A stretch of 64,000 nt of DNA from Nitrospinaceae bacterium (lineage in GTDB: Bacteria; Nitrospinota; Nitrospinia; Nitrospinales; VA-1): the NCBI GenBank assembly GCA_046754465.1, contig JBHHVU010000010.1:15067-79066 (forward strand), written 5' to 3'. The position numbers and the translations under genes were made by a program. The notes beneath the pieces are model-generated. The model was not told where the DNA came from and did no database searches. It saw only the letters and a list, made by a program, of their open reading frames with translations. Below, one piece after another: positions 23,723 to 42,510 of the stretch; position 1 is the first letter of the stretch; each line of letters opens with the position of its first letter.

Positions 23723-24343
23723 TCAATCCCCTTTCTGGGTGGAGGAGGCCTCGTTCGATGAGGAATCGGCTTGCGCCGGTTCGGAAACGTCCTTTTTTCC
23801 CTCCGCCGGAGTTTTCTTTTGCTGGCCGAAGACCTGGGCGATTATTTCGTTAATGATATCGGGTCCCAGCAGGTTGTAAACGGCGTTTGCCGATTTGAAG
23901 TGCGGGCTGGTGAAAAGACTGAGAACTTTCTTGCTGGTGTATCCCAGCATCATGAACTCGTGGGCATAATTTTCCGCGACCAGCCGCAGGGTGCTGTCAT
24001 CGGCATCCTCATCCCCCGTGGGCGGTCCGGCGTCGGAATGGCTGTCGGTCTGGATTTCGTACACGTAGATCAAATGCCAGCCGAATTCGGTTTTGACGGG
24101 TCCCACCACTTCCCCCTCCTGGGCGGTGAAAGCGGCCACTTCGAAGGGCCGGACCATGGAGCCTTTCCCGAACCATCCCAAATCTCCCCCGCGTTTTTTG
24201 GAAGGGCATTCGCTAAACTCTTCCGCGAGCTTTGAGAAATCCTCCCCTTCATCGATCTTCTTTTTCAATTCATCGGCCAGTTCCTTGGTGCCGACCAGGA
24301 TATGCCTTGCTTGAACCTTTTTTACTTTTTTATCTGTTGTCAT
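23723..24343 (-). CDS. Parvulin-type PPIase fused to an uncharacterised C-terminal domain
   Basis: ARHILV, FSECPS..RGGDLGWF, PFEVAAF, PVKTEFGWHLI; extra AENYAHEFMMLGY...LFTSPHF domain. Confidence 0.92.
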   Translation of the reverse strand: MTTDKKVKKVQARHILVGTKELADELKKKIDEGEDFSKLAEEFSECPSKKRGGDLGWFGKGSMVRPFEVAAFTAQEGEVVGPVKTEFGWHLIYVYEIQTDSHSDAGPPTGDEDADDSTLRLVAENYAHEFMMLGYTSKKVLSLFTSPHFKSANAVYNLLGPDIINEIIAQVFGQQKKTPAEGKKDVSEPAQADSSSNEASSTQKGD

Positions 24344-24500
24344 TCCTTTTACCCGCTTTCTAAAATGAAGATCATTGCGCGTTACCGGGGAACCCGGGAG
24401 GCACTCCAGGAGGCGGCCGCGAATGGATTGGATTGAGTTTGCCGTGGAAATCTCCCGAAAGGCCCGGAACCGGGCGGGCGGAGCGTCTGATTTTTGTATT

Positions 24501-25289
24501 TCAGTTCAATTTCAACGCACAGCATTTTTTGTATTTTTTCCCCGAACCGCAGGGACACACATCGTTGGGTTTAATTTTCCCATGAGCGATTTTTGTTTCG
24601 GCGGGCACCTTTAAAAGTTCCTGCCCGATTTTCTTGGCCTGTTTGTATCGTACCTTGAGCCGGTTGTACAGATCGGGAATGCAATGGTTGATCGCTATCA
24701 CCATATCATTTTTTTCGGGGTCGAGCTTGGCATCTTCCTCGGCCCTTAGTTTCTCATTGAAGAAATACGTATACGAGAAAATGGGAGGCTGTTTGTTGCT
24801 GTCCAGTTCAAATTTATAAAACACCAAATGGAGATCCCGGTTGTCGTTCCGCGGGTCGAGATCATAGGAATCTTCGGCGAAATATTTTTGATCGTTACAG
24901 GTGAAGTCGAGCGTTTCCTGGTTGCGGGGGAACATCTCGATATAATTGACATACTTCCCGGGCTCGAACATGAGATAGGACATGGGGTTTTTCTCCCCAT
25001 AGGCCTTGGCTTCAAAATAACGTTGCTTGAAAAGCAGGAGCAATTCGTCCGGAATGTTTTTTGCGAAATTCTTGATGATTTCAGACTGAACATTGGACCA
25101 TTTTGGCGCATTGGGGAGAGGATTATGAGTTTTGTTGAAATTCAGCAGAAAAACAAAACGGTTGTTATCGTTATCCTTGTCGCAGAACGATACCGTCACG
25201 TGTTTGCAATCGCAGAACGGGTTCGTGCAGTAATAATCTTCAAGGATATAGGTGTTCCTGTAATCCTCTTCCTCAAAACGATACGTCAT
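24501..25289 (-). CDS. SEC-C motif protein
   Basis: C-terminal PNDVCPCGSGKKYKKCC; N-terminal YCTNPFCDC. Confidence 0.9.
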   Translation of the reverse strand: MTYRFEEEDYRNTYILEDYYCTNPFCDCKHVTVSFCDKDNDNNRFVFLLNFNKTHNPLPNAPKWSNVQSEIIKNFAKNIPDELLLLFKQRYFEAKAYGEKNPMSYLMFEPGKYVNYIEMFPRNQETLDFTCNDQKYFAEDSYDLDPRNDNRDLHLVFYKFELDSNKQPPIFSYTYFFNEKLRAEEDAKLDPEKNDMVIAINHCIPDLYNRLKVRYKQAKKIGQELLKVPAETKIAHGKIKPNDVCPCGSGKKYKKCCALKLN

Positions 25290-25384
25290 GATGGACGAAA
25301 AACATTCCTGATGATTGATGACCGCGTACGATTCGATGGCCAGCCTCCTTTCCTCTGCTAAACGAATGTGTTCACGGACTGGGT

Positions 25385-25870
25385 TTAACTCGTATACCGT
25401 CCCGAGGACAAACCTCCCTTGAACCGGGTCGGGGGAGGGGCTTCCCCACTGAGATTCCGCACCGCCCGGACCGAATCTTTGGTGATTCCTTCTTTATTGG
25501 ATAAATCACCGTGACCGTATCGGTAATAAAAAACCGCGGCCGTGCTGTGGGGCCTTTCGATACTGGTCCAGGAAGTGAACCCGCCGCCGGGTGAAAAATG
25601 CGAATCCAGGTGAATTTCGATCCGGTCCATATCCCGCAACGGAAAGTCCTCATCGTATAGGCTTTCCGCCTCCTCCAGGGTAGGGAGGCGCCAGTTGGTG
25701 TACCCCGCGAATTTTTTGATATTCAATTCACGGATATACTCGCTTGCGTCGTACCAGTTCATCCATTTGCTGGTATCCTGAAAGGAATCGGTCTGTTTCC
25801 ACATCAATTGGGTTTCATGATCAGTCACGGTACCGTCCCCATTATCAACGAACCTGTTTTTTGAATCCAA
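25385..25870 (-). CDS. DUF1566 (Lcl C-terminal) domain protein 1
   Basis: FVDNGDGTVTD..TQLMW, FAGYTNWRLPT, WTS, VRAVR; TTG start. Confidence 0.9.
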   Translation of the reverse strand: MDSKNRFVDNGDGTVTDHETQLMWKQTDSFQDTSKWMNWYDASEYIRELNIKKFAGYTNWRLPTLEEAESLYDEDFPLRDMDRIEIHLDSHFSPGGGFTSWTSIERPHSTAAVFYYRYGHGDLSNKEGITKDSVRAVRNLSGEAPPPTRFKGGLSSGRYTS

Positions 25871-25963
25871 TTTCCGCCCTTTCTTCCCAATAAATTAAAA
25901 CCCCGGAGGAAAATAATTCCTTCCCTGTTCAATTAGGGAATCCTGCTGATGGAAACGAATCCG

Positions 25964-26437
25964 TCATATCAGCCCGTCCTCCTTTTCAATGTCCCGAACC
26001 AGACGGGTGGAACCCCGCGAGGTTCGATAGATGTCGTCATGAATCTGGTGTCCTTTTCGGTAACCGAATCGGATGGCCTGGATTTTATTGCGGACCGTGC
26101 TGGTCCAGCAAAGGAATCCGAATCCCGGCTCGAAAATACTGACGTGGCGCACCACCTGACCCATGTGATCCTTGTTTTCCTGGTTTTTGTCAAAAAGACT
26201 TCTGGCCTCGTCGGCGGTAGGCATGCGCCAGCCCTGGAATCCGGCATATTGTTTCTTATTAAATTCCTCGGAAAATTCCCGGGCCTGGACCCAGTTCATC
26301 CACTTGCCGGTCAATTGCCAAGTGTCTTTCTTGAGCCAGAGCAGGCGTTTGACAGTATCGATGACGGTATCGTTCCTGCCCTCTAAGAATCGGGCACCTT
26401 TATTTATCTTTGAGGAGGCCGGGTTGGTATTATTCAT
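25964..26437 (-). CDS. DUF1566 domain protein 2
   Basis: TVIDT...LLW, YAGFQGWRMPT, CWTS, TRLVR. Confidence 0.88.
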   Translation of the reverse strand: MNNTNPASSKINKGARFLEGRNDTVIDTVKRLLWLKKDTWQLTGKWMNWVQAREFSEEFNKKQYAGFQGWRMPTADEARSLFDKNQENKDHMGQVVRHVSIFEPGFGFLCWTSTVRNKIQAIRFGYRKGHQIHDDIYRTSRGSTRLVRDIEKEDGLI

Positions 26438-26509
26438 GGACCTATCGATCTGGAAAAAACATTGTTTAAAAAATCCCGATCCCTTCTGGCCGGTATCCCT
26501 TGGCGAAAA

Positions 26510-27388
26510 TCATTCCTTAAGGGTTCGCACCGGACGGACCCCGTGACTTCTCAGCCCCTGTTTATTCCACTTGTAATCCCCATTATAAAAGTGAAACCGC
26601 ATGGCCAGGGTTTTATCGGTTTTATTGAGGGTTTTGGTCCAGCAAGTGAGACCGCATCCCGGGGGAAATCCCTTGACGATGAAAACGGTATCGCCATATT
26701 TGTCGGTAACTGGGTTTGAGGGGTCATAAAGCATTTGTGCTTCCTTGCGGGTGGGCATTCGCCAGTCGCTGTAATTCGCGAACCGTTCCTTGTTCAATTC
26801 CACCAAGTACATTTTGGCTTCCTGCCAAGTCACCCACTTGTCCTTGTCAATATAGGAATCGGTGGCTTTCCACATCAATTTGGCGACGTGGTCGGTCACC
26901 GTTCCATCCTCGTTGTCGACGAAGCGTTCGATGCCCTCGTCACCCGAATCCTTTACATTTTTTCTAACGAGGCGGACCGCGCTGGGGAACCCGTCGTTTT
27001 CCTTGGCCAGCCAAAACTCGTAATTCGACCCGTAATAGAAACCCAATGCCGCGTTGGCGCCGCGGGGTTAACTGGTCCAGGTGGGATACCCCCACCCCGA
27101 TGGAAAGATGGAATTGAGGTGAATCTCCATCCCCTGAACATCCGTATTCGTGGCCTGGGGGTCGTACAGCGATTTGGCTTCCGAGGCCGTGGGGATCCGC
27201 CAATTATGGTATCCCGCGAACTTTTTTTCATTTATTTTTTTGGAATACTCAAGGCTCTCGTGCCAGGTGATCAGTCTCCCCAACTCGATCCAGGTGTCTT
27301 TTTTAATCCACATGAGATCATGTTTCAGGTCGGTGATGGTTCCATCGCCGTTGTCAACGAATTCGGATTGTTTGGTTTTTGTATCCAT
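26510..27388 (-). pseudogene. Two-domain DUF1566 protein 3 interrupted by an in-frame TAA at 27068-27070
   Basis: ORFs 27068-27388 and 26510-27046 share a frame (879 nt = 293 codons); reads ...YPTWTS*PRGANAALGFYY...AVRLVR then a second complete domain. Confidence 0.85.
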
Positions 27389-27413
27389 CAGGCTCGATTC
27401 AAGTTCTCAGTAA

Positions 27414-27899
27414 TTACCGGCGCACCGGCGGACGGGTATGGTCTCTTTTGACGGGGTCCTTCCGGCACAGTCTCACCGCGCCGAAACTGTATTCATCCGC
27501 CGTGGTGGTCGTTCCATCCATGAATTCGAAACGGGGACGCCGCGTGGAGGTGTCTCCCATGAGCCAGCTGAATTTGAAGGCTCCCTCGGGAAACAGGGGA
27601 TCAATATGAATGGCCGCGCCGCCCTTCGCGGTATTTTCAAGATTTTCGTCATAAAGAGTGACTGCGTCATTGAATGTGGGCAGCCGCCAGTCATTGAATC
27701 CGCCGATCTTCCGCATGTTTTTGTTGTCCGCGTAATCCCGCGCCTCATGCCAGTTGAAGAATTTTCCTTTATCCTGCCAGGAATCCTTTTTCAGCCAGAA
27801 AATCCGAGTTTGATTGTCGAATATGACGTGGGGTCCCTTTTCCACGAAGCGTTTGGGTTTTGTGTCTTGTTCCTGGATTTGGGGAAGTTTTTCGTTCAT
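27414..27899 (-). CDS. DUF1566 domain protein 4
   Basis: FNWHEARDY, GGFNDWRLPT, IHIDPLF, AVRLCR. Confidence 0.88.
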   Translation of the reverse strand: MNEKLPQIQEQDTKPKRFVEKGPHVIFDNQTRIFWLKKDSWQDKGKFFNWHEARDYADNKNMRKIGGFNDWRLPTFNDAVTLYDENLENTAKGGAAIHIDPLFPEGAFKFSWLMGDTSTRRPRFEFMDGTTTTADEYSFGAVRLCRKDPVKRDHTRPPVRR

Positions 27900-28022
27900 T
27901 ATGGACCTTCACCTCCAACTGGTTTGGATAAAATCCTTTCCGGAATTCCCGCGTGCCAAAGACTCCCGGAAAAGAAATGAAATGGGTTTCCTCCCTGCAA
28001 GGAGGGTTTCCCGCTAGAAAAT

Positions 28023-28241
28023 TTATTCGGGGGCATAACCGATTTCTACATTTCCCTCATCCACTTCCACAATTACGGGAACAACATACTGGCCGTTGGA
28101 ATATTCCAGCAGTTTCTTGAGGCCGTGCGGGTTGGCATCCACATTAATGTAAATGAAGGATTTATTCTGCCTTAAGAAATCTTCTCGCGCCTTTTTGGTG
28201 TGCGGACAATTGTCCTTACCAAAAATTATGTAATGACTCAT
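28023..28241 (-). CDS. Glutaredoxin-like protein (CxxT; resembles Uxx-star family)
   Basis: IIFGKDNCPHTKKARE, YINV, cis-Pro motif VVPVIV. Confidence 0.8.
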   Translation of the reverse strand: MSHYIIFGKDNCPHTKKAREDFLRQNKSFIYINVDANPHGLKKLLEYSNGQYVVPVIVEVDEGNVEIGYAPE

Positions 28242-28295
28242 AGTCGTTTTTGGGGACAAAAGGGATCAAATCCTCGATGCATCCGTTCCCGTGCC

Positions 28296-28928
28296 TCACC
28301 GTGCGAATTTTTTCGATTTATCACGCCATTCCGGTTCCCACTCGTCCTTCACTTCATCCCGGACGACGCGGACGTGGGAGTATTCATTGTCCTTATGTTC
28401 CCAGACATCGGTTCCCGTCACGTAACTGAACTTAAGGGCATATTGCTGGTAGTCCGGTTTTTCATCATAGGTCCAGGTATTGTGTCCCTGGCCCGAATCG
28501 AAAATGGAGTCGATATGGATTTCAGCGCCGTCCTTATCGTAATTGCTCTTGGTGAAGGAGAAGAGGGTTTTCGCGTCCTCGAAACTGGCAAGCCGCCAAT
28601 CGTCATAGCCGGCAAAGTTTTTTTCATTCAGCGACTCGCAATAATCGTGAGCCTCGAACCAATTGATGCCATAACCGAATTCTCCGTAGGAGTCCGATTT
28701 TTTCCACATCAGGTTATTTCGGGGGTCGCTGATCGTGCCGTTTCCATTATCGACAAGGGTGGGAACTTCTTCTTCAGCCAGGGCCTCCTCGTCTTCTTCC
28801 AACCACTCTTCTTCCCCGATCCATTCTTCCCCGGCGTACTCCTCCTCATCTTCCTGATGGCTGGGGTTTTTCTCTTCGGTTTTTTCTTCGTTGAGTTTCT
28901 GTTCGTTGAGTTTTTTTTCGTCGGACAT
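28296..28928 (-). CDS. DUF1566 domain protein 5 with acidic N-terminal extension
   Basis: About 54 aa Glu-rich leader then LVDNGNGTISD...LMW, FAGYDDWRL, VRVVR. Confidence 0.9.
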   Translation of the reverse strand: MSDEKKLNEQKLNEEKTEEKNPSHQEDEEEYAGEEWIGEEEWLEEDEEALAEEEVPTLVDNGNGTISDPRNNLMWKKSDSYGEFGYGINWFEAHDYCESLNEKNFAGYDDWRLASFEDAKTLFSFTKSNYDKDGAEIHIDSIFDSGQGHNTWTYDEKPDYQQYALKFSYVTGTDVWEHKDNEYSHVRVVRDEVKDEWEPEWRDKSKKFAR

Positions 28929-29026
28929 GGTTTTTACCTATAACTTATCAAAGGTCCAAATGGGTTTCCGTGATATCCCGGATGAAGGATCCGGTGAAAT
29001 TATTGATCCGAAGGGCAGTCTCTTTT

Positions 29027-29467
29027 TCATATGTCGCGTACCAGCCGGGCCGATGTCCCCGTGGTCGATACGCTTTGTTCGACACAAACCTCCCGCTTGA
29101 TTGGAAAATAACTCTTCCAGGCATAGGAATCGAACCGTGTTTCACAAGTCCAGAGACTGGTTTCCCCTCCCGCCTGGTAGTTGGCCACCCGTCGCGAAGG
29201 TTTCTTGGGTTGCTTTAAAAAAATTTCCCGGTATGCATCCTGGTCCCGGAACAAGGAACGCACTTCGCTTTTGGTGGGAAGCCTCCAATTGTCATATCCC
29301 AAATATTTCTGTTCGTTGCAGGCTTTGACGAAGGCATTGGCCTCATCCCAATTGAGCCATTTTGCCAGTTCCTGGCGGGAGTCCTTGATAGCCCACTGCA
29401 AATCTTCCTCGGTGTCAGTTACCGTACCATCACCGTTGATAATAAAATGTTTGACTGTCTCTGGCAA
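29027..29467 (-). CDS. DUF1566 domain protein 6
   Basis: NGDGTVTDTEEDLQW, YLGYDNWRLPT, LWT, ARLVR; TTG start. Confidence 0.88.
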   Translation of the reverse strand: MPETVKHFIINGDGTVTDTEEDLQWAIKDSRQELAKWLNWDEANAFVKACNEQKYLGYDNWRLPTKSEVRSLFRDQDAYREIFLKQPKKPSRRVANYQAGGETSLWTCETRFDSYAWKSYFPIKREVCVEQSVSTTGTSARLVRDI

Positions 29468-29875
29468 GGCAAACCCTTTTTTTTCGAATACGAAGGAAAA
29501 TAAAAAAACACTCTATTCTTTGCGTTCATTCATTCCGGATGAAAACCATCTTGCTCCAACAATATACCTTTGGCGCAATCATCTGGAACAGGCCAAACAT
29601 AATTGAATGAAATGAAGAACTAAAGTGTTCTCAATCCTGGACAATAGTATTGTACTGGGTCAGGGGATTTAATTTCAATAAGGTAACACCAGGAGGGTAA
29701 ATTTTCAAGCCAAATTCAAGAGAAAAGAAAACCCGGAAACCCGTTTGCCCGGTGCGGAAAGGCATTCTCCGGGCTCCCGTTCAATTCTTCCATTGCGGAA
29801 GGGGGATGGAAAAAACAAAAAGGGCATGTTAGGAAACAGTCCCAATATCTGAATACCGGTTTGGGGAAGGTGCGG

Positions 29876-30370
29876 TCAACGCCACCCGCCTCCCTGAACA
29901 ACCCGGTCCCGGACGGCCGGCGGATTTTCCAACTTGATGGAAGGGTTCAAGGTGCCCCGGACCAGACGCACACTGGTGTTCAGAAGGTCTCCAGCTTCCT
30001 TGTGCCCCCCGGACCCGCTGTTGAATGAATAAACATACGCGGTAATTTTGCCGCGGGTGTTGCTGGTCCAGGTATCGTATCCACATCCCGGTCCAAAAAC
30101 GGGGTCGATGTGGATATCCATTTCGTATTTATCTTGCAAAGCTTTATTTTTATCAAACAGGGTATGGGCCTCCTTCTTGTCGGGAAGCCGCCAGTCCGTA
30201 TATCCCGCGAATGCTTCCTTATTTTTTTGATCCCTGAATTTGATGGCTTGGGCATGAGTTAAAAATTTTTTCAAATCCAGATAGGAGTCATTTTTGGCCC
30301 ACATCAGATGGGTCAGACTGTCGGTAATCGTGCCATCCCCGTTATCGATGAATCGTTGCCCGTCGGTCAT
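29876..30370 (-). CDS. DUF1566 domain protein 7
   Basis: AAGGAGGT RBS before ATG 30370; FIDNGDGTITD..THLMW, FAGYTDWRLP, TWTS, VRLVR. Confidence 0.9.
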   Translation of the reverse strand: MTDGQRFIDNGDGTITDSLTHLMWAKNDSYLDLKKFLTHAQAIKFRDQKNKEAFAGYTDWRLPDKKEAHTLFDKNKALQDKYEMDIHIDPVFGPGCGYDTWTSNTRGKITAYVYSFNSGSGGHKEAGDLLNTSVRLVRGTLNPSIKLENPPAVRDRVVQGGGWR

Positions 30371-30422
30371 GCAAAAGACCTCCTTGTTTTTCGGTGGCAT
30401 CCAGGTGTTTCAAAGAAAGCGG

Positions 30423-30455
30423 AAAAAAAAACCGGGAGGCAAGAGCCTCCCGGTT
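30423..30455 (-). terminator. Rho-independent terminator
   Basis: AACCGGGAGGC-aaga-GCCTCCCGGTT with an A-run on + (U-tract on -), just after gene 30477-30965. Confidence 0.85.
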
Positions 30456-30476
30456 AAAATTCATGCAACCAAGCAA

Positions 30477-30965
30477 TTACCTTTGACTTTCAGGCTTCTC
30501 TCCAGTCACACCAGCGATTCCCCTTTCCGTACCTTCGGGCATACCAAAACCCGGCTCGATGTACGTAAAGGGTTTAACATGGTCCAGATGATAATTGGTC
30601 TGGTAGGTTTTTCCGGAACCGGCATCCATTCTCCAGTCGTGGCGATCGTATCGCTGTCGCTGGCAATTCACGGAAATGAGGCCGGGACCTTTATTGGTAA
30701 TGATAGATTTTTGGGCAATGGCGTTGGTCTCGTATCCACCCGGAGGCAAAGTCGCCTTAAAAATCTTTTTCCACGCGTAAGCGAAGGGACCGATATCGAA
30801 CTCAATATTGGTGTCCTGGGTTTCACTCAGGTTGTAAGCGATCCACGATGCATTTTCACAGATTGCTTTGCCGCCCGGCGAAACTTCCACCACGTTGGCG
30901 CTGGCGATGGCGATAAAACCAAAAAATACAAATATAGTGGTTAAACTGGCAGCCGTCCTTCTCAT
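30477..30965 (-). CDS. Secreted hypothetical protein
   Basis: Sec signal ending ASA; GGGGGAG RBS; own promoter and terminator. Confidence 0.8.
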   Translation of the reverse strand: MRRTAASLTTIFVFFGFIAIASANVVEVSPGGKAICENASWIAYNLSETQDTNIEFDIGPFAYAWKKIFKATLPPGGYETNAIAQKSIITNKGPGLISVNCQRQRYDRHDWRMDAGSGKTYQTNYHLDHVKPFTYIEPGFGMPEGTERGIAGVTGEKPESQR

Positions 30966-31159
30966 GTGCTCCCCCTTTCCAAAAAAAGCGGAATTAAACA
31001 GGATAAAATCAAGTCAAACAAGAACTCCTAGTTTCGAATACCACCTCCCGTCGGCATTTCCAATTCTCTAATTTATTCAAAAAGATTCCAAAAGTAAAGA
31101 ATCAATATTTCTGACGGATTTATCCCTTCCAATTTACATTGGCTTTTTAGAGTCGCCCG

Positions 31160-31188
31160 AAAATAACAAACCCTTTACGAGAAGTCAA
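31160..31188 (-). promoter_or_regulatory. Sigma70 promoter candidate for 30965
   Basis: Minus strand TTGACT-17 nt-TATTTT with extended TG. Confidence 0.5.
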
Positions 31189-31286
31189 GATTTAAATTAA
31201 GGGGGAAACCCCTTTCAGGATAATCCTTTAAAAAAGAAAAAGTTAAAATAAAAAAACTTCCCGGGCGGTGATGCCGGTTCCAGACT

Positions 31287-31682
31287 TTATCTTTTGAATT
31301 TTAAGGAGGTCAGGTTCATCAGGTTCAGGGAGTTCCTCAACAGCTTTTCTCCGTCTTCGGTGATATCGTTGACCACGAGCTGAATACTCCGCAAGTTCTT
31401 TAAATACTTGGCGTTGGAAAGATGGCGGGCCCCCTCGTCGCCGATTCCGTTGGACGCCAGATTCAGGGTACGCAAATTGGAGAAAATCGGCGCTTCGGTG
31501 AGGGCGCGGACTCCATCGTCACCAATGCTGTTTTGCGACAAGTCCAGGGCCTGGAGACTGTGGAGGCATTCCACCTTTGCCAGGGCGCGAACTCCAACTT
31601 CCCGGATAAACTTGGCTTTCAAGCTCAAGACTTGTCCATCGCTACTCAGATTTTGCCTGACGAGTTCTTCGATATCCGCCAT
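31287..31682 (-). CDS. Small leucine-rich repeat protein (RI/GALA-like LRR)
   Basis: LQALDLSQNSIGDDGVRAL / LRTLNLASNGIGDEGARHL / LRSIQLVVNDITEDG. Confidence 0.9.
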   Translation of the reverse strand: MADIEELVRQNLSSDGQVLSLKAKFIREVGVRALAKVECLHSLQALDLSQNSIGDDGVRALTEAPIFSNLRTLNLASNGIGDEGARHLSNAKYLKNLRSIQLVVNDITEDGEKLLRNSLNLMNLTSLKFKR

Positions 31683-31734
31683 TTTGGTTTCCTAATGGAA
31701 AAAAAATTTACCCATGGATTTGTCCTACCGGAAG

Positions 31735-32568: not shown

Positions 32569-32668
32569 GGTCCGCCGATAAGCAATGTTTTTAATTCACC
32601 GAAAGGGTATTTTGAAATTTTACCAGACCTTCCACCCTCTCAGTGAAAAAAACTCTTGCTGGGTCCCC

Positions 32669-33292: not shown

Positions 33293-33326
33293 TTCAAGTC
33301 CCTTGCGGATGGTAAACCCGACACTC

Positions 33327-34343: not shown

Positions 34344-34673
34344 GGGACTCCATCAAAAGGGTGAAAGGTTCCCCTTCATAAAATTCCAGCGAAAAGGTTC
34401 ATCGAATCCGGGGCTACCCGGAGTGCGATGTCCGGCAAACGCAACTATTTGGGATAAGACCCCTCCCGGACTTTTTCGCCGGGAAAATTTTTTGGGTAAA
34501 GTGACGGGACTCAACCATGAAAAATGGCCAAGGCGGGAATTCCGGCTGAAAGCAACCGGCCGATTCCCAAGGGGGACCGCCCTGAACACCACGGGGGTTG
34601 GATATTAAATTATTGGGGAAAACCCTGACGGTTTTTTCCGCGCCCAAGCATTTTCCACGGCTTATCCGCACTT

Positions 34674-35285
34674 TTATTTGATCATGAACCCTTTGCAGTC
34701 AAGAATCTGGTATTCATAATCACAGGCTTTTTGCAGTTCCCCCAATCTTTCGTTCCAATTCTCCCTGAAATTGTCGAGGTTTTCCGATTTCGGTTTTTTC
34801 TTCATCAGACCCACCTCTTTGATCAGGGGTTTCACAAGATTTTTGTGAATCAACTGGAGCGTGTTTCGCAGTTTCAGAATACATTCCTTAGTGACCGTTT
34901 CGCGGGTCACCCCATCCACTTTTTCCAGAAGCCGGAGAAAAGATTGAATGGTTGTCAGCTGCGACGTATAACTTTCGGCCAACTTATGGTTGTATTTCAA
35001 TCCGCAGTCAATGTAAGCGGGCATCAACCACATGCCCACGTGGTGATCGAACTTGACGGAGAGGGTGATCAATTTCTGGAGGTAATCTACCTCCCTCAGA
35101 TCTTCCTCCTCCTCCTCCTCCCCTTCCTCGAGCTCTTGGGCGGCTTTTTCCTTTTCTTTCTGAAGCTCCAACTTGATTTTTTCGAGTTCACTCAGATCGG
35201 AAAGAGAATCGGCATCCGTCTTTTCGCTCTTGGCGGGGTCCTGATTTTCTTCTTCCTTTTTGGTTTCAGTATCCTGGTCGCTCAA
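34674..35285 (-). CDS. Hypothetical helical protein with poly-Glu N-terminal region
   Basis: AGGAG RBS, TTG start, EEGEEEEEEDL tract; downstream of a near-consensus promoter. Confidence 0.8.
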   Translation of the reverse strand: MSDQDTETKKEEENQDPAKSEKTDADSLSDLSELEKIKLELQKEKEKAAQELEEGEEEEEEDLREVDYLQKLITLSVKFDHHVGMWLMPAYIDCGLKYNHKLAESYTSQLTTIQSFLRLLEKVDGVTRETVTKECILKLRNTLQLIHKNLVKPLIKEVGLMKKKPKSENLDNFRENWNERLGELQKACDYEYQILDCKGFMIK

Positions 35286-35591: not shown

Positions 35592-37397
35592 ATGAAAACC
35601 GCATTGGTTTTCCCTCCACAATGGTATCCCAGTCAACCCTACCTGGCCCTGCCCACGTTGATGGCCTATCTGCAATCCAAAGGCCACGACGTCGAGCAGT
35701 TTGACTTCAACATAGAAAGTTATCAGATCTTTCTTTCCCGGGAATACCTCGGCCGGTGCGTGGATATCATACGCACCCGCCTCACGCAACCTGCCTATTC
35801 CCTGGAGGAAAGGGAAGTCCAATCCGTCTACCGGCAGATCCTTTCCGACAGCGAATATCTCGAAACCATCATGGAGGAAGTGGAGGACGCGGCGAATGTC
35901 CTGCGCGACGAGAAACGGTTTTTTCAGTTTCCGGTTTACAAAAAAGCGTATACCACCTTGAAAATCGCCATGAAGCTCATTTCTTACGCCCACTTCCCGA
36001 GCCGGATCGACCTGGAATCCTTCTTCATGCAGGGAACCCCCGAGGAAAGCCTTCAGGGGATTCTCTCGGCCACCGCCGATTCCGCACGAAATCCCTTCGT
36101 CCACCTGGTCCGGGACTATCTTTTATCCCAGGTGCAATGGGAGAATTACCGGCTGGCCGGAATATCCATCATCCATGTGGGGCAGGTGATTCCCGGCCTG
36201 ACCCTGGCGCGATGGTTGCGGAAGAGATACCCCCACCTCCATATTGTCATAGGCGGCAGTGTGTTCGCCCGTCATCAGGACATTCTGGAAAACAAGCAGG
36301 TCCTGTTCGAGGAATTTTTTCACAGCATCATCCTGTTTGAGGGCGAGCATCCCTTGGACCAGTTGATCAGCCATCTCAAGGAAAAGAAACCACTGGATAC
36401 CGTCCCCAACCTGATTCACCTGGTGAACGGGAGAGTCGTCCACAACGAAAAAGCCAAATCCCTGCCCTACGAAAAACTGGTGCCTCCCAATTTCGACGGC
36501 CTGCCCCTGGAAAAATACCTGATGCCCTATCCCGTTTTGCCCTACATGGCGAGCCGGGGCTGTTATTGGGGGAAGTGCACCTTTTGCACGCACAGTTTTA
36601 TCTACGATTCTTATTACCGGAAGGAAAACGAAACCCGGATGGCGGAAGAGATAGAGTACTTGAGTCAACGGTACCAGACCCGGTACTTCACCTTTTCGGA
36701 TGAAGCCATATCCCCCAACGCGTTTCGAAGAATGTCCAGCGCGATTCTGGCGCGGAACGTCGAAATGCGCGCCCTGGGCATGCTCAAGTTCGAGTCGGAC
36801 AACGTGGAAACCCCCGATCTGTTTGAACACATGTACCGGGCGGGATTCATCATGCTTTTTTTTGGCCTTGAAAGCGCCAACGACCGGGTTCTTTCCCTCA
36901 TCGACAAGGGGTGTGACCAGAACACCGAAAAGCTGGTCCTGGAAAACAGTTCCCGCGCGGGTATCTGGAACCATCTCTATCTGTTTTTCGGATTCCCCAC
37001 GGAAGAACGGGAGGAAGCCGAGGACACCATCCGGTTCACCATAAAAAATAGCGAAACCGGGACGGGGATCATTCACTCGGTGGGGCAATCCACCTTTTCC
37101 CTGGAGAAGGATTCCGCCATTTATCACAACCCGGGAAAATTCGAAATCGGCCGGATCTTTCACGATCCCGAACGGGACATGGCCATCATCTTCGACTTCG
37201 ATATAAAATCCGGGATGTCCCGGGAAGAAGTCATGGACGTCTACGAAAACTTCAACGGAATCCTTAACGAATGTTTTCCATCCCGGAAGATTTGGAATTT
37301 CCTTTCGAGGGAGCATTTTCTTCTTTACCTGGACCATTTCGGGAAAGAGGGGATCCTCGATATGGCGGGCCGCGAGGAGAACATGGCGCAAACCTGA
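35592..37397 (+). CDS. B12-binding domain radical SAM protein
   Basis: LVFPP..PYLALPTL.AYL...GHDV, LAGISI, HIVIGG cobalamin-domain elements; SRGCYWGKCTFC; FGLES, FFGFPTE. Confidence 0.93.
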   Translation: MKTALVFPPQWYPSQPYLALPTLMAYLQSKGHDVEQFDFNIESYQIFLSREYLGRCVDIIRTRLTQPAYSLEEREVQSVYRQILSDSEYLETIMEEVEDAANVLRDEKRFFQFPVYKKAYTTLKIAMKLISYAHFPSRIDLESFFMQGTPEESLQGILSATADSARNPFVHLVRDYLLSQVQWENYRLAGISIIHVGQVIPGLTLARWLRKRYPHLHIVIGGSVFARHQDILENKQVLFEEFFHSIILFEGEHPLDQLISHLKEKKPLDTVPNLIHLVNGRVVHNEKAKSLPYEKLVPPNFDGLPLEKYLMPYPVLPYMASRGCYWGKCTFCTHSFIYDSYYRKENETRMAEEIEYLSQRYQTRYFTFSDEAISPNAFRRMSSAILARNVEMRALGMLKFESDNVETPDLFEHMYRAGFIMLFFGLESANDRVLSLIDKGCDQNTEKLVLENSSRAGIWNHLYLFFGFPTEEREEAEDTIRFTIKNSETGTGIIHSVGQSTFSLEKDSAIYHNPGKFEIGRIFHDPERDMAIIFDFDIKSGMSREEVMDVYENFNGILNECFPSRKIWNFLSREHFLLYLDHFGKEGILDMAGREENMAQT

Positions 37398-37489: not shown

Positions 37490-37562
37490 TCAACTATACC
37501 GCTCAATTACATGAAGGGAACAGGGGTTTAATCACTTGATGAAGTAAAGGAGTAGAAAGATT

Positions 37563-38693
37563 ATGAGCGAGTCCAAAGACACAGGCGGTTGGATCACCAT
37601 GAAAATCGCGCCCGAGATTTTTGACGAACTCGGTGTCCGGGATCCGGAGCAGATCAAGCTGGAAACCAAAATCATGAAGAAGGTCCGCCAAGTAAAGAAA
37701 GAATTGAAAAACGAACCCGACAACCTCGACAAGTTGAACGAACTGAGCACGTATTACATCGATGGGGGAAATTACGAGGATGCCATCAATGTATTGCGGA
37801 CGGTCATCAGTAAAGACAAATTCAACGTCCGTGCCTACAAGTTGATCGGCACCGCCTACGTTTTGTTCAATCACGAGGACGAAGCCATCATGGAATTGAA
37901 CCGCGCGGTCGAGCTGGACCCCAAGGACCCGGAAATTCATTTCAATCTGGGGGGCGTTTACATGCTCAGGGATTGCTTTCTGAATGCGATCCGCTGTTTC
38001 GAGAATGTGATCGAACTGGACCCAACCGATACCCTGGGATACGCCAATCTGGCTGCGGCTTATGACGCCGAGAAAATGTACGAGGAGGAAGTCCGCGTCC
38101 TGAAGCGGGTATTGATGTTCAGTCCGGAAGATAAAGAGTTGCGCTCCGCCCTGAGCACCGCCTATTTTAACTCGGGAAATTATGACGACGCCTTGAGCGC
38201 CGCCCTCTGCGTGGTGGACCTGGACGACAAGGATCCCCAGGCTTATTGCAACCTGGGAAGCTGTTATTCGGTGAATAACATGGTCGACGAAGCGGTCAAA
38301 GCGTTCAAGAAAGCCAGTGAGATTGATCCCGAATACAACCTGCCCCATACCAACCTGGGAAGCCTTTATGCCACTATGGGCCGGTTGGAAAGCGCCATCA
38401 AGGAATTCAAGCAGTCGGTCTCCCTGAACCGCGGTGACTCACTGGCCTGGTTCAATCTGTACAACTGTTACAAGGAAGTAGGGAGGATGGAAGATGCCGA
38501 GGAAGCCTTCCGCCATTACGACCGGCTGATGAAAGAACTGGATGGGCGGGCCCCGGGTGCCGAGGGGGATCAGACCAATTTATCCAATATCCCCGGTGGA
38601 GTTTCTCAAACCGGAAACCTGGCCGATGGCGCCAAACTGGAAGATAGCAAGGCCGGAATGGAAACCGGGTTCGGGGAAACCGAATCTCCTTGA
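37563..38693 (+). CDS. Multi-TPR protein
   Basis: About 8 consecutive 34-aa TPRs (e.g. HFNLGGVY...AIRCFENVIELDP); no signal peptide. Confidence 0.93.
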   Translation: MSESKDTGGWITMKIAPEIFDELGVRDPEQIKLETKIMKKVRQVKKELKNEPDNLDKLNELSTYYIDGGNYEDAINVLRTVISKDKFNVRAYKLIGTAYVLFNHEDEAIMELNRAVELDPKDPEIHFNLGGVYMLRDCFLNAIRCFENVIELDPTDTLGYANLAAAYDAEKMYEEEVRVLKRVLMFSPEDKELRSALSTAYFNSGNYDDALSAALCVVDLDDKDPQAYCNLGSCYSVNNMVDEAVKAFKKASEIDPEYNLPHTNLGSLYATMGRLESAIKEFKQSVSLNRGDSLAWFNLYNCYKEVGRMEDAEEAFRHYDRLMKELDGRAPGAEGDQTNLSNIPGGVSQTGNLADGAKLEDSKAGMETGFGETESP

Positions 38694-38721
38694 ACATGAT
38701 GTATCACCTGGGGGATTGTGA

Positions 38722-40116
38722 GTGGTGCCCATGACCCAGGAATCCCGAAATACCCTGCCACTTGGCGATTTCCAGCCCGCGGACCAATGGCAAATCCACG
38801 TCAATTCCATTTTTTACGGGACCCTTGGGCCGGCGATTCATAATCATTTCCAAACTTACGCCAGTCTGGATCACCGGTTGGCCCATTCCCTGGCAGAGGA
38901 ATATTTTGAGCAGGTGCGGGACCAGCCCCTCTCCCCCGGCCCCCGGTACATCCTGGAGTTGGGGGTGGGAAACGGAAACCTCGCGCGGTGCTTCCTTTCC
39001 CGGCTCAGGGAAATCGATTCCGGCGGTCGCGTCTACCCGCGTACGCATTATGTTCTTTGTGATTATTCCGAGGAAATCCTTAAAGGAGTGCGCTCCAATC
39101 CCCGATTGCGGGAACATGCGGGGCATTTTTCCACTATCCGTGCCGACGCCTCGGGCCTCGGCTGTTTCCGGCCCCAATCGGTTGATAAAATCATATCCAA
39201 TGAAATCTGGGACGATCTCGCCACCCGGGTTCTTTTAAAGCATCAAGGCACCCTCTACGAGGAATATCTACAGCCCCACCTGGACCCCGCCCTTATCGGC
39301 GGCGACTTTGAAACATTCAGCGGCTGCTTCGGCGGCAAAAACTATTCCGCCCTGCGGGAATATCCCCCCTTTCTTTCCCACATCCATTGGGAAAAAAGTT
39401 ATCAGCGTGTGGACATTGGAGACTGGCCTTACCCGGCGAACCTTCAAGCTCAGATCGAACGGTTCGCCGATGAGATCCCCATGCCAGTCAACATCGGCGC
39501 TTTTACGACCCTCGAGCGGGCCCGCGGGTTGTTGCGCCCTGGCGGACAGGGATACCGGGGGTTCGATTACGGGATGTTTTCCATCGACGACTTGAACCGT
39601 GAAGGACGGCCCTATTTCAACCTGTATGGTGGACAATATACCTTCATGGTGAATTTCGATCTCCTGGTCCGGGTGGGCAAGGCCGTCGGATTTGAAAATG
39701 TCGAAAAAGAATATCAGCACCATTACGTGGCTGGGAATTCGGCACGGAAAGTCACCAGCCTGGTGGAAATTCTCCAAAGCCATCCCCAGATTCCGCAAAT
39801 GGCCCCCTGGGACCGGGATCTCCTCATGGTTCAAACCCTCCACGCCCTCAACCGCGCCTACCGGAGCCCTTACAAGAACAAGATGGAATATCCCCTCCTG
39901 CCGGGCACGCCTAAAAAACAGAGAAAACAAATCGCTCAACTGGTCAAAAAACTAAGCCCCTACGGTGTTCCCGATACGGTGGCTTATGTAACCGACGGCG
40001 AAGTGTTTTCGGTGATAGGGACTCTCAAACGGCTAGGATACAGTGAAAGGGGTCTCCACCAGGTTTTCGATGGCCCCCCCGACGCCATCACCTTCGTCAC
40101 CCTGAATTTCCGGTAA
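38722..40116 (+). CDS. SAM-dependent methyltransferase, MidA/NDUFAF7-like, with C-terminal extension
   Basis: ILELGVGNGNLA SAM motif, IISNEIWDDL, FDYG, T.MVNF; start may be ATG 38731. Confidence 0.85.
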   Translation: MVPMTQESRNTLPLGDFQPADQWQIHVNSIFYGTLGPAIHNHFQTYASLDHRLAHSLAEEYFEQVRDQPLSPGPRYILELGVGNGNLARCFLSRLREIDSGGRVYPRTHYVLCDYSEEILKGVRSNPRLREHAGHFSTIRADASGLGCFRPQSVDKIISNEIWDDLATRVLLKHQGTLYEEYLQPHLDPALIGGDFETFSGCFGGKNYSALREYPPFLSHIHWEKSYQRVDIGDWPYPANLQAQIERFADEIPMPVNIGAFTTLERARGLLRPGGQGYRGFDYGMFSIDDLNREGRPYFNLYGGQYTFMVNFDLLVRVGKAVGFENVEKEYQHHYVAGNSARKVTSLVEILQSHPQIPQMAPWDRDLLMVQTLHALNRAYRSPYKNKMEYPLLPGTPKKQRKQIAQLVKKLSPYGVPDTVAYVTDGEVFSVIGTLKRLGYSERGLHQVFDGPPDAITFVTLNFR

Positions 40117-40274: not shown

Positions 40275-40796
40275 TCATGTCGTCAATATTTTTAACAGTG
40301 CGTCCACCATGGTCTCTATTTTTAGGAGCACCTTTGGCTCGGTCAGCTGGCCGTCTTCAAAATCGTCCGAACAGGAATAAACGATGGGATGAACCGTCAG
40401 CACGCCCGACTCAAAGGAAAGGATTTTGACCAGGTCCGACGAGGCGAGAAATGACTTGGTTCCCCCGGCGTTGCACAAGAGTCCCGCGGCCTTGTTCTCC
40501 ATGGCTCCCGCCGTGATGTCGATCAGGTTTTTGACCACTCCGGAGACCGACCAGCAGTAGACCGGCATACCAAAAATAAATCCATCAGCCGATTCCATCA
40601 GCCGATAGGCTCCCCGCATATCGGCGTTGTAATCCTGAATAGCCCTTCCATCACAAAATTGCAGGTCCAACGAGCGAAGGTCGAGAGTTTCAAAATCGGC
40701 ATTCCTTGTCCGGAGAATCCTTTCCGTCTCCGCCACCACGACGGCGGTTTTGGAGTGAGTGGAAAGGCTCCCCTGCACAATCACAATCCTGGCCAT
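40275..40796 (-). CDS. NADPH-dependent FMN reductase family protein
   Basis: GSLS..SKT, ADGFIFGMPVY.WSVSGVVKNLID. Confidence 0.9.
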   Translation of the reverse strand: MARIVIVQGSLSTHSKTAVVVAETERILRTRNADFETLDLRSLDLQFCDGRAIQDYNADMRGAYRLMESADGFIFGMPVYCWSVSGVVKNLIDITAGAMENKAAGLLCNAGGTKSFLASSDLVKILSFESGVLTVHPIVYSCSDDFEDGQLTEPKVLLKIETMVDALLKILTT

Positions 40797-40842
40797 GGTT
40801 AGAATTATCCCCGGCGGGCCTCCAGCGAATTAAACGGTTAAA

Positions 40843-40875
40843 AAAAGGCTTGCACCGGACCGGTGCAAGCCTTTT
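40843..40875 (-). terminator. Rho-independent terminator (possibly bidirectional)
   Basis: Perfect inverted repeat AAAAGGCTTGCACCGG-a-CCGGTGCAAGCCTTTT after the NHL gene. Confidence 0.85.
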
Positions 40876-40902
40876 GGATATCTTCCTGACAAACATCCAG
40901 GG

Positions 40903-42510
40903 TCAGGCCGAGGGAACCTGTTTTGGCGGCTCTTCCTCCTCTTCCGTTTCTTCACCCTCCTCTTCGGCGAACAAATCGTCCTCTTCATCCTCCTCCTCAC
41001 CGATGAGTGCGTTGGGATCATCAACTTCCATCTCGTTATCGAGCTCCTCCTCCCCCTCGCTAAAGGGAGAATTCGGAAGTTCGTCCCAAATCACCACACG
41101 GGCGTTTCCCCGGTCGGCGATATAAAGTTTGAAGGGTACTTCTTCGACCTCATCCTCATCCACATCCGGGTCTTCTTCCAGGAACAGGCCGAAGGGGTCG
41201 TTGAGGGTGGAAGCGGTGGTTTCTCCGCCCCGGTTGGAATGATTGTCCGAGAAGGTTTTTTGACCGAGGACGAGATCCGCCGGCTGGCCGTTTTCGGTGG
41301 GGACTTCCTTCCAATACAGGACGCGGTGGTTTTCCGTGTCGGAGACAAACAAGCCTGTTCTGCCGAAGACCACATCGGTCGGGAAATAGAGACCCTCGCG
41401 GCATGCGTTTTTGGCCCCATGACCGGAATTGGGCTCCCTGCTTTGAAAGTCCTTTTGTCCGATCACCACATCCGCGGGTTTGCCCGAATCGGTGGGAAGG
41501 TGATTCCAGATCAACACGCGATGATTTCCCTGGTCGACGACGAACAGATTGTCCCTTTCGGCATCGTAAAACACACCGGTGGGAAAACTGAGGGTATCGG
41601 AGCCGACATTGTCGAATTCTCCGCGATTGGGTTCCCGTTCGTCCATCCCCGATTGGCCCAGGCAAACATCGGCGTTCCAGCCGTTGTTGAAGGGAATTTT
41701 GCTCCAGATCAAAATCCTGTGGTTGTCCTTGTCGGCGATGAATACGTGCTGGTCGTCCCCCGAATGGATTCCCATGGGGAAAAACAGGGAGCCGGACCCG
41801 ACCAAGCCGCGCCGGTTGGCTTCGTTGCATTCCAGGTTGTCCTGACCCAGAACCAGGTTGGGGGCTTCGCCGTCCTCGGAAGGCAGGCCGCTCCAGCGGA
41901 TCGCCCGGTGATTGCCGCTGTCCACCACATAGAGTTTTCCATCGATGACAGCGAGTCCGGCGGGCTGGGAAAGGGTGTCCTCTTCTCCCTTACTGATGGT
42001 GAAATCCTCCAGGTTTTCGTCCCCCAGGCCGGAAGTCATCTCATCCAGCGTGGTCGTTATGCCCCGGTTTTCGAGGCAGTCGGCGAAATCTTCCTGTCCC
42101 AGCACGAGGCTGGCCGGTTCCCCGTTTTCCTCGGGGGGTTGTTCCCATACGAGAACCCGGTGGTTTCCGCGATCGGAAACAAAAACCATCTCGCCGAACC
42201 TGGTAATGTATTGGGGTTCGGCCAGCGTGTTGTCTCCCGGGTCATCCGCTCCCCGGTTGGCCTGGCACATGGAGAAATCGCCCTGGCCCATCACCAAGCA
42301 GGCGCCTTTTTCTGGCTCGGCTTCCTCCGTGGTTTCCCCCGTTTCTTCCATTTCCTCATCTTCGTCGAACTCATCCTCCTCGTCCGTTTCCTCGGATTCT
42401 ACCAGGGAAGCCGCCTCCCTATCATCCTCCGGCGGACTTTGGGTGTCTTCCACTTCGGTGGCTTCTTCCTGGTTGAGTTCTTCCTCGTTGTCTCTTTTGT
42501 CTTCAGACAT
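40903..42510 (-). CDS. NHL-repeat protein (VLGQ.DF subtype) with acidic N- and C-terminal tails
   Basis: Repeated D.GNHRVL.W...P...G.PA.LVLGQ; GGAGGT RBS before ATG 42510. Confidence 0.92.
   Translation of the reverse strand: MSEDKRDNEEELNQEEATEVEDTQSPPEDDREAASLVESEETDEEDEFDEDEEMEETGETTEEAEPEKGACLVMGQGDFSMCQANRGADDPGDNTLAEPQYITRFGEMVFVSDRGNHRVLVWEQPPEENGEPASLVLGQEDFADCLENRGITTTLDEMTSGLGDENLEDFTISKGEEDTLSQPAGLAVIDGKLYVVDSGNHRAIRWSGLPSEDGEAPNLVLGQDNLECNEANRRGLVGSGSLFFPMGIHSGDDQHVFIADKDNHRILIWSKIPFNNGWNADVCLGQSGMDEREPNRGEFDNVGSDTLSFPTGVFYDAERDNLFVVDQGNHRVLIWNHLPTDSGKPADVVIGQKDFQSREPNSGHGAKNACREGLYFPTDVVFGRTGLFVSDTENHRVLYWKEVPTENGQPADLVLGQKTFSDNHSNRGGETTASTLNDPFGLFLEEDPDVDEDEVEEVPFKLYIADRGNARVVIWDELPNSPFSEGEEELDNEMEVDDPNALIGEEEDEEDDLFAEEEGEETEEEEEPPKQVPSA

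Follow-up and report, generated by a model that had tools for sequence, protein, structure and literature searches.

What process holds together a run of 16 genes, half of which encode one and the same domain? This question is raised by a stretch of DNA from a Nitrospinaceae bacterium of the order Nitrospinales, the main nitrite oxidisers of the ocean. The stretch analysed here (the window, 64,000 nucleotides) comprises positions 15067-79066 of one contig (JBHHVU010000010.1) of a 3.3 Mb assembly in 115 contigs (GCA_046754465.1), and coordinates without a prefix are those of the window. It contains a block of 16 genes spanning approximately 11.6 kb (23723-35285), in which every credible gene lies on the minus strand and eight Lcl_C (DUF1566) genes with nine domains are interleaved with eight other genes. 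Close homologs of these genes carry the names Nitrospinaceae, Nitrospinales, Nitrospina watsonii, N. gracilis, and 'Ca. Nitrohelix vancouverensis'. Families were assigned with Pfam and NCBIfam, and nine open reading frames (ORFs) of the block scored 46.7-84.8 bits against the Pfam family Lcl_C (PF07603), above its gathering cut-off of 34.9 bits. An earlier reading of the letters alone (the sequence-only reading) had described eight DUF1566 genes with nine domains, two NHL and two TPR proteins, an LRR protein, a SEC-C protein, a parvulin fusion, and a glutaredoxin; all of these were recovered with the family libraries, one DUF1566 gene (D3) being interrupted in this genome. Its placement of all genes between 23.7 and 35.3 kb on the minus strand, divergent from a plus-strand radical S-adenosylmethionine (SAM) gene, was correct, and its remark that mobility genes are lacking agrees with the scan of the window ORFs against the family libraries, among which no transposase, integrase, or reverse transcriptase was found. 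One member of the block, the leader-bearing orphan sp162 (30477-30965), was not in its list.

The block is a fixed trait of the order

Comparison of 12 loci from 12 genomes, which represent all four families of the order, revealed that the run from the parvulin gene to h203 is colinear in 12/12 loci, with each gene best matching its positional counterpart. The identity to the positional ortholog is 47-88% for the Lcl_C proteins, 72-87% for the parvulin, 65-83% for h203, 69-82% for NHL1, and 49-74% for secC. The sole exceptions to colinearity are the two loci of family f3 (L010 and L011, from genomes G029 and G026), which contain no D7 and in which the order of D2 and D3 is swapped. The flanks change between lineages while the block stays intact. 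In a maximum-likelihood tree of 115 Lcl_C domains, nine positional clades were obtained, each with a support of 97-100 in the Shimodaira-Hasegawa-like approximate likelihood ratio test (SH-aLRT), and the position labels change eight times on the tree, the minimum possible, compared with a mean of 83 for shuffled labels. The relations between the clades are weak (SH-aLRT 28-88). The presence of the same positional clades across the order indicates that the duplications predate the order and that every copy has been kept since. Two tests had been set in advance by the sequence-only reading, namely whether the paralogs group by genome rather than by position and whether the orthologs are scattered in relatives. 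The paralogs group by position and the orthologs remain in a colinear block, and these two results support its proposal of a resident conserved system.

Copy number follows the same boundary. Each of 31/31 genomes of the order, sampled from four families and 19 genera, contains 18-28 Lcl_C matches, including 23 in a genome of 1.6 Mb, while five genomes from sister families of the same class contain 6, 7, 6, 0, and 0. The copies inspected in the sister families mostly carry leaders, and none of them lies beside a block gene. Throughout the order to which Nitrospina, 'Ca. Nitrohelix', and uncultured Nitrospinaceae belong, the block is a fixed trait.

For a view across phyla, one genome per species was scanned for the back-translated motif DNGDGTVTD, which yielded at least 123 stretches, 80 of which were examined; they cover many bacterial phyla and one archaeon and, as the scan sees only genes with one exact nine-residue motif, form a sample and not a census. 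By the family hidden Markov model, 73 of the 80 loci contain an Lcl_C gene, which is single in 65, double in 5, and triple in 1. Among the matches listed, only two loci, from Nitrospinaceae and Nitrospina, hold six and seven Lcl_C genes, and the rest hold at most three. Outside Nitrospinota, the Lcl_C genes of this sample are mostly long and multi-domain, with a hydrophobic N-terminus. The largest cluster outside Nitrospinota among the motif matches listed is found in the archaeon Methanogenium marinum (NZ_JAKELO010000002.1:658263-670289), where three two-domain Lcl_C genes lie side by side, all with a hydrophobic N-terminus.

The Lcl_C paralogs share a core and differ in charge and C-terminal residues

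Read downstream along the minus strand, the Lcl_C genes are D8sec (32669-33292, within the ORF 32669-33430; 84.8 bits), which encodes a hydrophobic leader, and the leaderless genes D7 (29876-30400), D6 (29027-29467), D5 (28296-28928), D4 (27414-27899), the two-domain gene D3 (26510-27388), D2 (25964-26437), and D1 (25385-25870). D3 is split in this genome into two ORFs of the same frame (27068-27388 and 26510-27046), with one TAA (27068-27070) between them that sits directly after the 'WTS' motif of the first domain. In 12/12 relatives, D3 is intact as a single two-domain ORF of 293-338 aa, and the TAA reflects either an error in the assembly of this metagenome-assembled genome or a nonsense mutation that arose recently. 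The leaderless proteins of the block are bare domains of 146-210 aa with no stalk.

Analysis of the domains in 13 genomes revealed that the isoelectric point (pI) is fixed by position. The median pI is approximately 5.0 for D1, which has an acidic domain, and approximately 10.0 for the very basic domain of D2, with 4.8 for D5 and approximately 7 for each of D4, D6, and D7; the D3 fusion joins an acidic domain, D3a (pI 5.3), to a basic one, D3b (pI 9.2). D2 lacks the DNGDGT motif, and its pI is approximately 10 in 13/13 genomes. The best match of D5, at 88.5%, is the top value among the Lcl_C paralogs. Acidic low-complexity tails are present on D5 (63 residues), TPRa, h203, NHL1, and NHL2, and they are kept in the orthologs of the first four.

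A family alignment of 27 sequences (D1 numbering) showed that W24, W60, R61, R135, and R138 are invariant and that D17, D28, N50, G56, P63, E67, and W101 are at least 90% conserved. Paralog-specific columns, defined as at least 85% conserved within a position and with a majority residue common to at most one third of the positions, account for 9 of 124 columns, and 8 of these 9 fall at D1 residues 95-120, in the C-terminal third of the domain. When the family profile was compared with the Protein Data Bank (PDB), the sole match was the Lcl C-terminal domain (8q4e, E 3e-4); the D1 sequence alone gave no PDB match with phmmer. In the alignment to 8q4e, the 'DWRLPT..E' stretch pairs with Lcl W337-E344, which identifies R61 and E67 as the positions of the R338/E344 salt bridge. 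Eight of the nine window domains retain the Trp of the 'NW' motif, which aligns with Lcl W315; D7 alone lacks it. A complex prediction for D1 with D2, run with 13-row alignments for each and no control pairs, gave a score of 0.00 in two runs and is uninformative either way. Judged from these sequence patterns, each paralog looks like a distinct binding module on a common scaffold. Each has an ortholog group, a conserved charge, and a C-terminal face that set it apart from the others, and together these point to a hard-wired, non-redundant repertoire of binding modules and not to a diversifying or redundant battery.

The whole genome contains 26 PF07603 matches in 25 Lcl_C genes. The 17 genes outside the block lie singly in unrelated housekeeping contexts, which indicates that the family is not confined to one machine. 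A second pair of a leaderless Lcl_C gene and a parvulin gene was observed in the source genome (L020:60-1545, contig C16), adjoining genes for a HAD hydrolase, a DUF547 protein, and a fatty-acid hydroxylase. The same trio directly adjoins the main block in another genome of the order (G013, L009:12613-15252).

Seven of the eight Lcl_C proteins of the block are probably cytoplasmic

The term leaderless was applied from ORF limits together with a crude count of hydrophobic residues per 12-residue stretch before the domain. Each ORF was taken from the first start codon after a stop, so that no upstream extension is possible. In D1-D4, D6, and D7, the domain starts 12-24 residues after the first possible start codon in this genome and 10-36 residues after it across the 13 genomes, and in D5 it is preceded by the acidic tail. 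D1-D7 have no hydrophobic leader in 13/13 genomes: the best 12-residue stretch before the domain has at most 9 hydrophobic residues, and usually 3-6, the larger counts being limited to ORFs that are spuriously lengthened by their most upstream start. The corresponding counts for D8sec and sp162 are 9-11 in 13/13 genomes. The seven leaderless Lcl_C proteins are thus probably cytoplasmic, and D8sec is probably exported. The description of the array as cytoplasmic in the sequence-only reading fits the seven leaderless genes and fails for D8sec, and its picture of a purely intracellular system does not hold, with two of the 16 products carrying leaders.

Inspection by eye of the N-termini of all 25 Lcl_C genes in the genome gave 17 leaderless genes, 7 with a hydrophobic leader, and 1 that is ambiguous. 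One further gene product of the source genome, a leaderless protein of 349 aa (L023:4000-5049, contig C24), is a fusion of a response-regulator receiver domain to Lcl_C, and its gene lies directly downstream of genes for a hybrid histidine kinase and an HDOD protein. This fusion indicates that the Lcl_C domain is used inside the cell. A similar pair of HDOD and histidine kinase genes is found within the window at 14752-16979.

The other genes of the block include families restricted to its clade

The upstream edge of the block is formed by h203 (34674-35285), an orphan with no Pfam or NCBIfam family. It is followed by NHL1 (33327-34343; PF01436, 131.8 bits), a leaderless NHL-repeat beta-propeller with an acidic N-terminal tail, whose ScyF-like match of 273 bits is below the cut-off of 350. 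TPRa (31735-32568) matches TPR families of Pfam and has an N-terminal tail that is strongly acidic, its net charge per 40 aa ranging from -14 to -26 in 13/13 genomes. The leucine-rich repeat protein LRR (31287-31682; LRR_6, 46.2 bits) has 131 aa, and its ORF is of exactly this length in 12/12 relatives. The orphan sp162, located between LRR and D7, has a hydrophobic leader and no Pfam or NCBIfam family. Between D5 and D4 lies the glutaredoxin-like gene (28023-28259; NF041114, 76.9 bits compared with a cut-off of 72), whose product has one Cys, in the sequence CPHT, and whose ORF ends in GYAPE-TAA. A selenoprotein was considered, as NF041114 (UXX-star selenoprotein family 1) passed its cut-off, and was rejected, since the stop is TAA and no in-frame TGA follows. 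By its sequence, the protein is assigned as a non-selenium member of that family. The block closes with secC (24501-25289), which combines an N-terminal domain of approximately 230 aa with a C-terminal SecA-like metal-binding (SEC-C) motif (PF02810, 35.9 bits), and with the gene for a parvulin-type prolyl isomerase (23723-24343; PF13616, 89.2 bits) at the downstream edge. The parvulin continues for approximately 110 C-terminal residues, a C-terminal half that matches no family.

Matches to secC with E<=2.3e-19 were found in 94 of 102 genomes of the order, either full-length or cut solely by contig ends, and the eight genomes with no match are 57-83% complete. In 18 genomes of the class outside the order, no full-length match was found, and 11 of them match just the last ~70 residues, which contain the SEC-C motif common to SecA. 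The N-terminal 235 residues match 143 proteins in a set of 5.8 billion, and all the names given to these are Nitrospina-type. Some orthologs carry the source name 'YecA family protein'; the NCBIfam YecA-type models score 22-39 bits against cut-offs of 68-158, at residues 188-259 only. Some orthologs have lost the N-terminal Cys cluster (CTNPFCDCNH) or even the SEC-C motif; these losses indicate that the conserved part of secC is the novel N-terminal domain. In one f3 genome (G026), the match contains two TAA stops. The AF2 model of secC (predicted local distance difference test [pLDDT] 74, predicted template modelling score [pTM] 0.44) had no Foldseek match in the PDB at E<=1e-3, and a wide VIA-align search gave a best Z of 4.7, tied among PH/PTB-like, p32/Mam33-like, and SsgA-like rows and not interpretable. 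In Protein Atlas, secC matched SEC-C clusters only.

The h203 protein has an acidic disordered N-terminus followed by a helical bundle, modelled by AF2 as four helices (pLDDT 78, pTM 0.65; the other four models scored 50-69), with no Foldseek match at E<=1e-3. Its conserved His and Cys residues comprise FDHH at 79-82 (H81 and H82), C/H94, H100, C135, and C188, and such a cluster in a predicted four-helix protein suggests a metal or redox site. Weak Pfam matches to Sap1_N and to a CZB-like domain were observed (E 0.03-0.04). The h203 profile recovered 956 representatives of near-identical clusters, named only Nitrospina-type or 'hypothetical', and 22 matches among 1.84 billion representatives at 50% identity, most of them fragments. 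For sp162, the three best Protein Atlas clusters are all orphans from Nitrospinota. The ranges of secC, h203, and sp162 indicate that these families are confined to the clade having the block.

The block is probably divided into about four transcription units

Gaps between consecutive block genes are mostly shorter than 100 nt in the 13 genomes, with three exceptions: h203-NHL1 (mostly 170-400 nt), LRR-sp162 (approximately 250-345 nt in 12/13 genomes), and D7-D6 (102-525 nt in the 11 genomes keeping D7). Of the terminator-like hairpins on the minus strand, the two strongest are located after sp162 (30455-30430, 11 pairs) and after the parvulin gene (23689-23673), and the best promoter-like site, TTGACA-17-TATACT at 35392-35364, precedes h203. 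In the whole scan, 20 promoter-like sites were counted versus 14.8 expected, and 28 terminator-like sites versus 32.1 expected; with counts so near to expectation, single sites carry little weight. These features suggest that there are probably about four units: h203, which probably forms a unit of its own; NHL1-D8sec-TPRa-LRR; sp162-D7; and D6-D5-grx-D4-D3-D2-D1-secC-parvulin. In the last, long unit, of which D6 is the first gene, six Lcl_C genes would probably be co-transcribed with genes for a prolyl isomerase, a monothiol glutaredoxin-like protein, and a protein bearing the SecA-type metal-binding motif. A search of 20-46 kb with Rfam gave no match at E<=0.1, and alignment of the three long gaps across genomes revealed no block with at least 80% conservation over 20 nt.

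The neighbouring genes are not components of the block

Divergent from h203 on the plus strand is an operon of a radical SAM gene (35592-37397; PF04055, 44.9 bits compared with a cut-off of 29.5), a TPR protein gene (37563-38693), and a methyltransferase-like gene (38722-40116). Beyond it, on the minus strand, are an FMN reductase gene (40275-40796) and NHL2 (40903-42525), whose product is a six-blade NHL propeller that lacks a leader and has an acidic tail at either end. The sequence-only reading had named a B12 radical SAM and MidA-like run here. The operon and the radical SAM assignment are retained; the B12 and MidA labels come from sub-threshold matches: the B12-binding family PF02310 scored 16.6 bits against a cut-off of 32.1 (best NCBIfam model TIGR03975, 116 against 281.85), and the MidA-like family PF02636 scored 18.6 against 23.3. 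Other methyltransferase families were below their cut-offs too, and no NCBIfam family matched the methyltransferase-like protein.

Comparison of the loci revealed that this operon faces h203 in 8/12 loci and that in three genomes (G013, G029, and G026) a different contig carries the radical SAM ortholog, with 64-69% identity. The radical SAM family also occurs outside the order, and the genomes have 3-6 paralogs of it each. In locus L001 (genome G002), a 4.4 kb insertion (3800-8280) with a HigB-like toxin ORF, an HTH ORF, and ORFs without a family separates the radical SAM gene from h203. The proposal that the block has its own methylation helpers is therefore not borne out; the incomplete adjacency, the placement on other contigs, and the many paralogs indicate that the two SAM enzymes are neighbours and not parts. 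The remaining surroundings vary likewise. L009 has a HAD hydrolase, a DUF547 protein, and the ftsZ region as neighbours, L010 and L011 have ribonucleotide reductase, and L007 has a DUF6978 ORF in the last 0.9 kb before the contig end. At the downstream edge, serA follows the parvulin gene in 8/11 informative loci, NHL2 follows it in L009, and a TPR gene with a 129-aa ORF follows it in the f3 loci. NHL2 is located beyond the methyltransferase gene in L002, L003, and L005. Alone among the neighbours, it retains some association with the block, being found close by on one side or the other. The radical SAM operon, the FMN reductase, and NHL2 are not components of the block.

Adjoining NHL2, a minus-strand gene (42653-44278) encodes a cytochrome c fused to an EB_dh domain, like the gamma subunit of enzymes of the type II DMSO reductase family. 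A paralog of this gene in the source genome (L026:1892-3634, contig C49) adjoins a leader-bearing Lcl_C gene and a sigma-54 two-component set.

Comparison with characterised proteins

Lcl of Legionella pneumophila is reported to be a trimeric adhesin that is secreted, carries a collagen stalk, and uses a lysine-rich face to bind sulphated glycosaminoglycans; its C-terminal domain (Lcl-CTD) is a stable trimer with an intradomain salt bridge between R338 and E344 and with W315 at the trimer interface (PMC11162425). Lcl-CTD (8q4e), the founding member of PF07603, belongs to the same family as the block domains and has the same core and salt-bridge positions. Unlike Lcl, the block proteins are bare, leaderless, and stalkless, with domain pI values of 4.8-10, and are encoded in a fixed eight-gene array. 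Surface export of the Lcl type is not seen here, as 7/8 block Lcl_C genes have no hydrophobic leader in 13/13 genomes.

Diversity-generating retroelements (DGRs) vary the C-terminal region of lectin-fold targets. Their variable proteins, among them targets annotated as DUF1566, have the same broad C-type-lectin fold as the block proteins, in which the paralog differences also concentrate C-terminally. In contrast to DGR targets, the block has a variety that is not newly generated and consists of eight old, germ-line-fixed orthologs. No reverse transcriptase was found among the ORFs scanned and no template/variable repeat pair was found; the longest direct repeats are 25-31 nt, with 65-96% identity, and match conserved motifs.

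Leptospira also has multi-copy Lcl_C families in one genome, the DUF1566 lipoproteins and adhesins such as Lsa25, and the NCBIfam model NF047850 Lsa25 gave weak N-terminal motif matches to block proteins (21-24 bits versus a cut-off of 260). The leptospiral DUF1566 proteins are reported to be exported surface proteins, whereas those of the block are leaderless and encoded in a conserved block with scaffold and helper genes.

The enterobacterial proteins YecA and YchJ have the same Cys-rich SEC-C motif that ends secC. For SEC-C-type domains of E. coli, binding of zinc or iron and contacts with SecB and ribosomes are reported; YecA/AscA is described as a Sec export chaperone and YchJ as a redox-sensing regulator. 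In contrast to these proteins, secC is covered by the NCBIfam matches over its last ~20-70 residues only, and its ~230-aa N-terminal domain is order-specific and has no fold match.

The papers listed for DUF1566 concern Lcl, Leptospira, DGRs, or incidental mentions, with no description of this array, and nothing on the subject was found among the papers listed on the proteome of Nitrospina gracilis. In the main texts of the N. gracilis genome paper and the Nitrospinae cell-sorting paper, the terms 'paralog' and 'lectin' are absent. The function of the block is apparently undescribed in the literature. The Lcl_C family is known; an order-confined array of its leaderless copies, kept in a fixed block together with scaffold and helper genes, was not met in the literature searched.

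Possible function of the block

We have high confidence in the descriptive part, that is, an ancient order-wide block with positional orthology, conserved charges, and leaderless genes. Gene order kept at such divergence is said, after Dandekar et al. 1998, usually to mark co-transcribed and coupled genes whose products often interact physically. On balance, we lean towards a reading in which the conserved block encodes cytoplasmic recognition or adaptor modules that work in one process with scaffolds and helpers. In this reading, each leaderless Lcl_C protein would bind a different partner, protein or glycan, through its own C-terminal face, and these proteins may oligomerise as Lcl-CTD does. 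The process would join them with the NHL, TPR, and LRR interaction scaffolds and with the folding and redox helpers. That the block products form a stable physical assembly is possible and rather doubtful. A bolder version, which we regard as improbable, is an intracellular recognition apparatus in which approximately 17 germ-line-fixed leaderless lectin-fold subunits per genome, eight domains of them in the block, would assemble as hetero-oligomers (for example, acidic with basic, as in D3), dock on the NHL, TPR, and LRR proteins via acidic tails, and organise a lineage-specific structure or quality control. If it exists, such an apparatus would parallel the lectin-fold binders of surfaces and DGRs in a cytoplasmic and hard-wired form.

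Several observations weigh against a joint cytoplasmic process. D3 is interrupted in this genome, and the f3 loci, with no D7 and with the swapped D2 and D3, show that neither composition nor order is absolute. The 17 dispersed copies show that an Lcl_C gene does not need a block in order to work, and the block may chiefly be the place where the family historically arose. The block is apparently divided into about four units with a strong predicted terminator in its middle, and these units were drawn from gap lengths and consensus scans alone. The modelled folds of h203 and secC gave no functional lead. A missing leader does not prove a cytoplasmic location, and with two probably exported products, the proteins may not all share one compartment.

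In the main rival, the block would be the site of a tandem expansion of the family in the ancestor of the order, with paralogs that now act alone, neighbours that are unrelated, and an order kept by shared promoters or low rearrangement. We consider it unlikely, while acknowledging that it would account for the 17 of 25 Lcl_C genes in single, unrelated contexts, for the poorly resolved relations between positional clades, as expected of an old duplication burst, and for the division into units. It does not readily explain why the non-Lcl_C genes are interleaved at fixed places in 12/12 loci while both flanks change, why the glutaredoxin-like gene lies inside the tightest Lcl_C run, with gaps mostly below 100 nt, or why secC, h203, and sp162 are found in this clade only, with a range that matches that of the block. 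In the opposite direction, the block could be part of a single 19-kb intracellular machine with the radical SAM and methyltransferase proteins as dedicated modifiers and NHL2 as a second scaffold, as the sequence-only reading had it. Divergent adjacency of the operon in 8/12 loci, the position of NHL2 near the block in L002, L003, and L005 and on the other side in L009, and the acidic tails of NHL2, which resemble those of D5, TPRa, NHL1, and h203, are consistent with this; such a machine is nevertheless very unlikely, given the radical SAM ortholog on other contigs in G013, G029, and G026, the 3-6 paralogs of that family per genome and its occurrence outside the order, and the insertion with the HigB/HTH pair that separates operon and block in L001.

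Two further explanations take their lead from the characterised relatives. The Lcl_C proteins could be surface or periplasmic adhesins that leave the cell by non-classical export, with the SEC-C protein as chaperone and the parvulin as foldase. All characterised DUF1566 proteins encountered in the literature are extracellular or DGR targets, YecA/AscA is described as an export chaperone, and two block products do carry leaders. The chance of this is slim, since the domains start 10-36 residues from the first possible start codon with no hydrophobic stretch in 13 genomes (D1-D4, D6, and D7), the same genome makes leader-bearing Lcl_C proteins and hence uses a leader where export is wanted, and the receiver-domain fusion places Lcl_C in the cytoplasm. 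A battery for defence or diversification, in the form of a polymorphic-toxin immunity array or a set of DGR targets, deserves hardly any credence. Small leaderless tandem paralogs resemble immunity arrays, and DGR targets usually have a C-type-lectin-like fold; strict one-to-one orthology across four families, the lack of a reverse transcriptase, toxin, or mobility gene among the ORFs scanned, and direct repeats of motif level only, with no template/variable pair, argue against both. The DGR form was ruled out on the missing reverse transcriptase and the motif-level repeats, and the immunity array was rejected on the one-to-one orthologs and on the absence of any toxin domain found with Pfam.

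If the leaderless proteins do work in the cytoplasm, the Lcl_C fold would serve inside cells, besides surfaces and phage tips. Streamlined genomes of 1.6 Mb still keep approximately 23 Lcl_C copies and the 16-gene block, and the block provides a defined gene set for a lineage-specific process in cultured Nitrospina.

Other genes in the window

Elsewhere in the window, two adjacent genes for cyclophilin-type prolyl isomerases are located on the minus strand at 53714-55107, the second with an N-terminal extension, and multicopper oxidase genes are located at 50621-52309 and 56917-57921.

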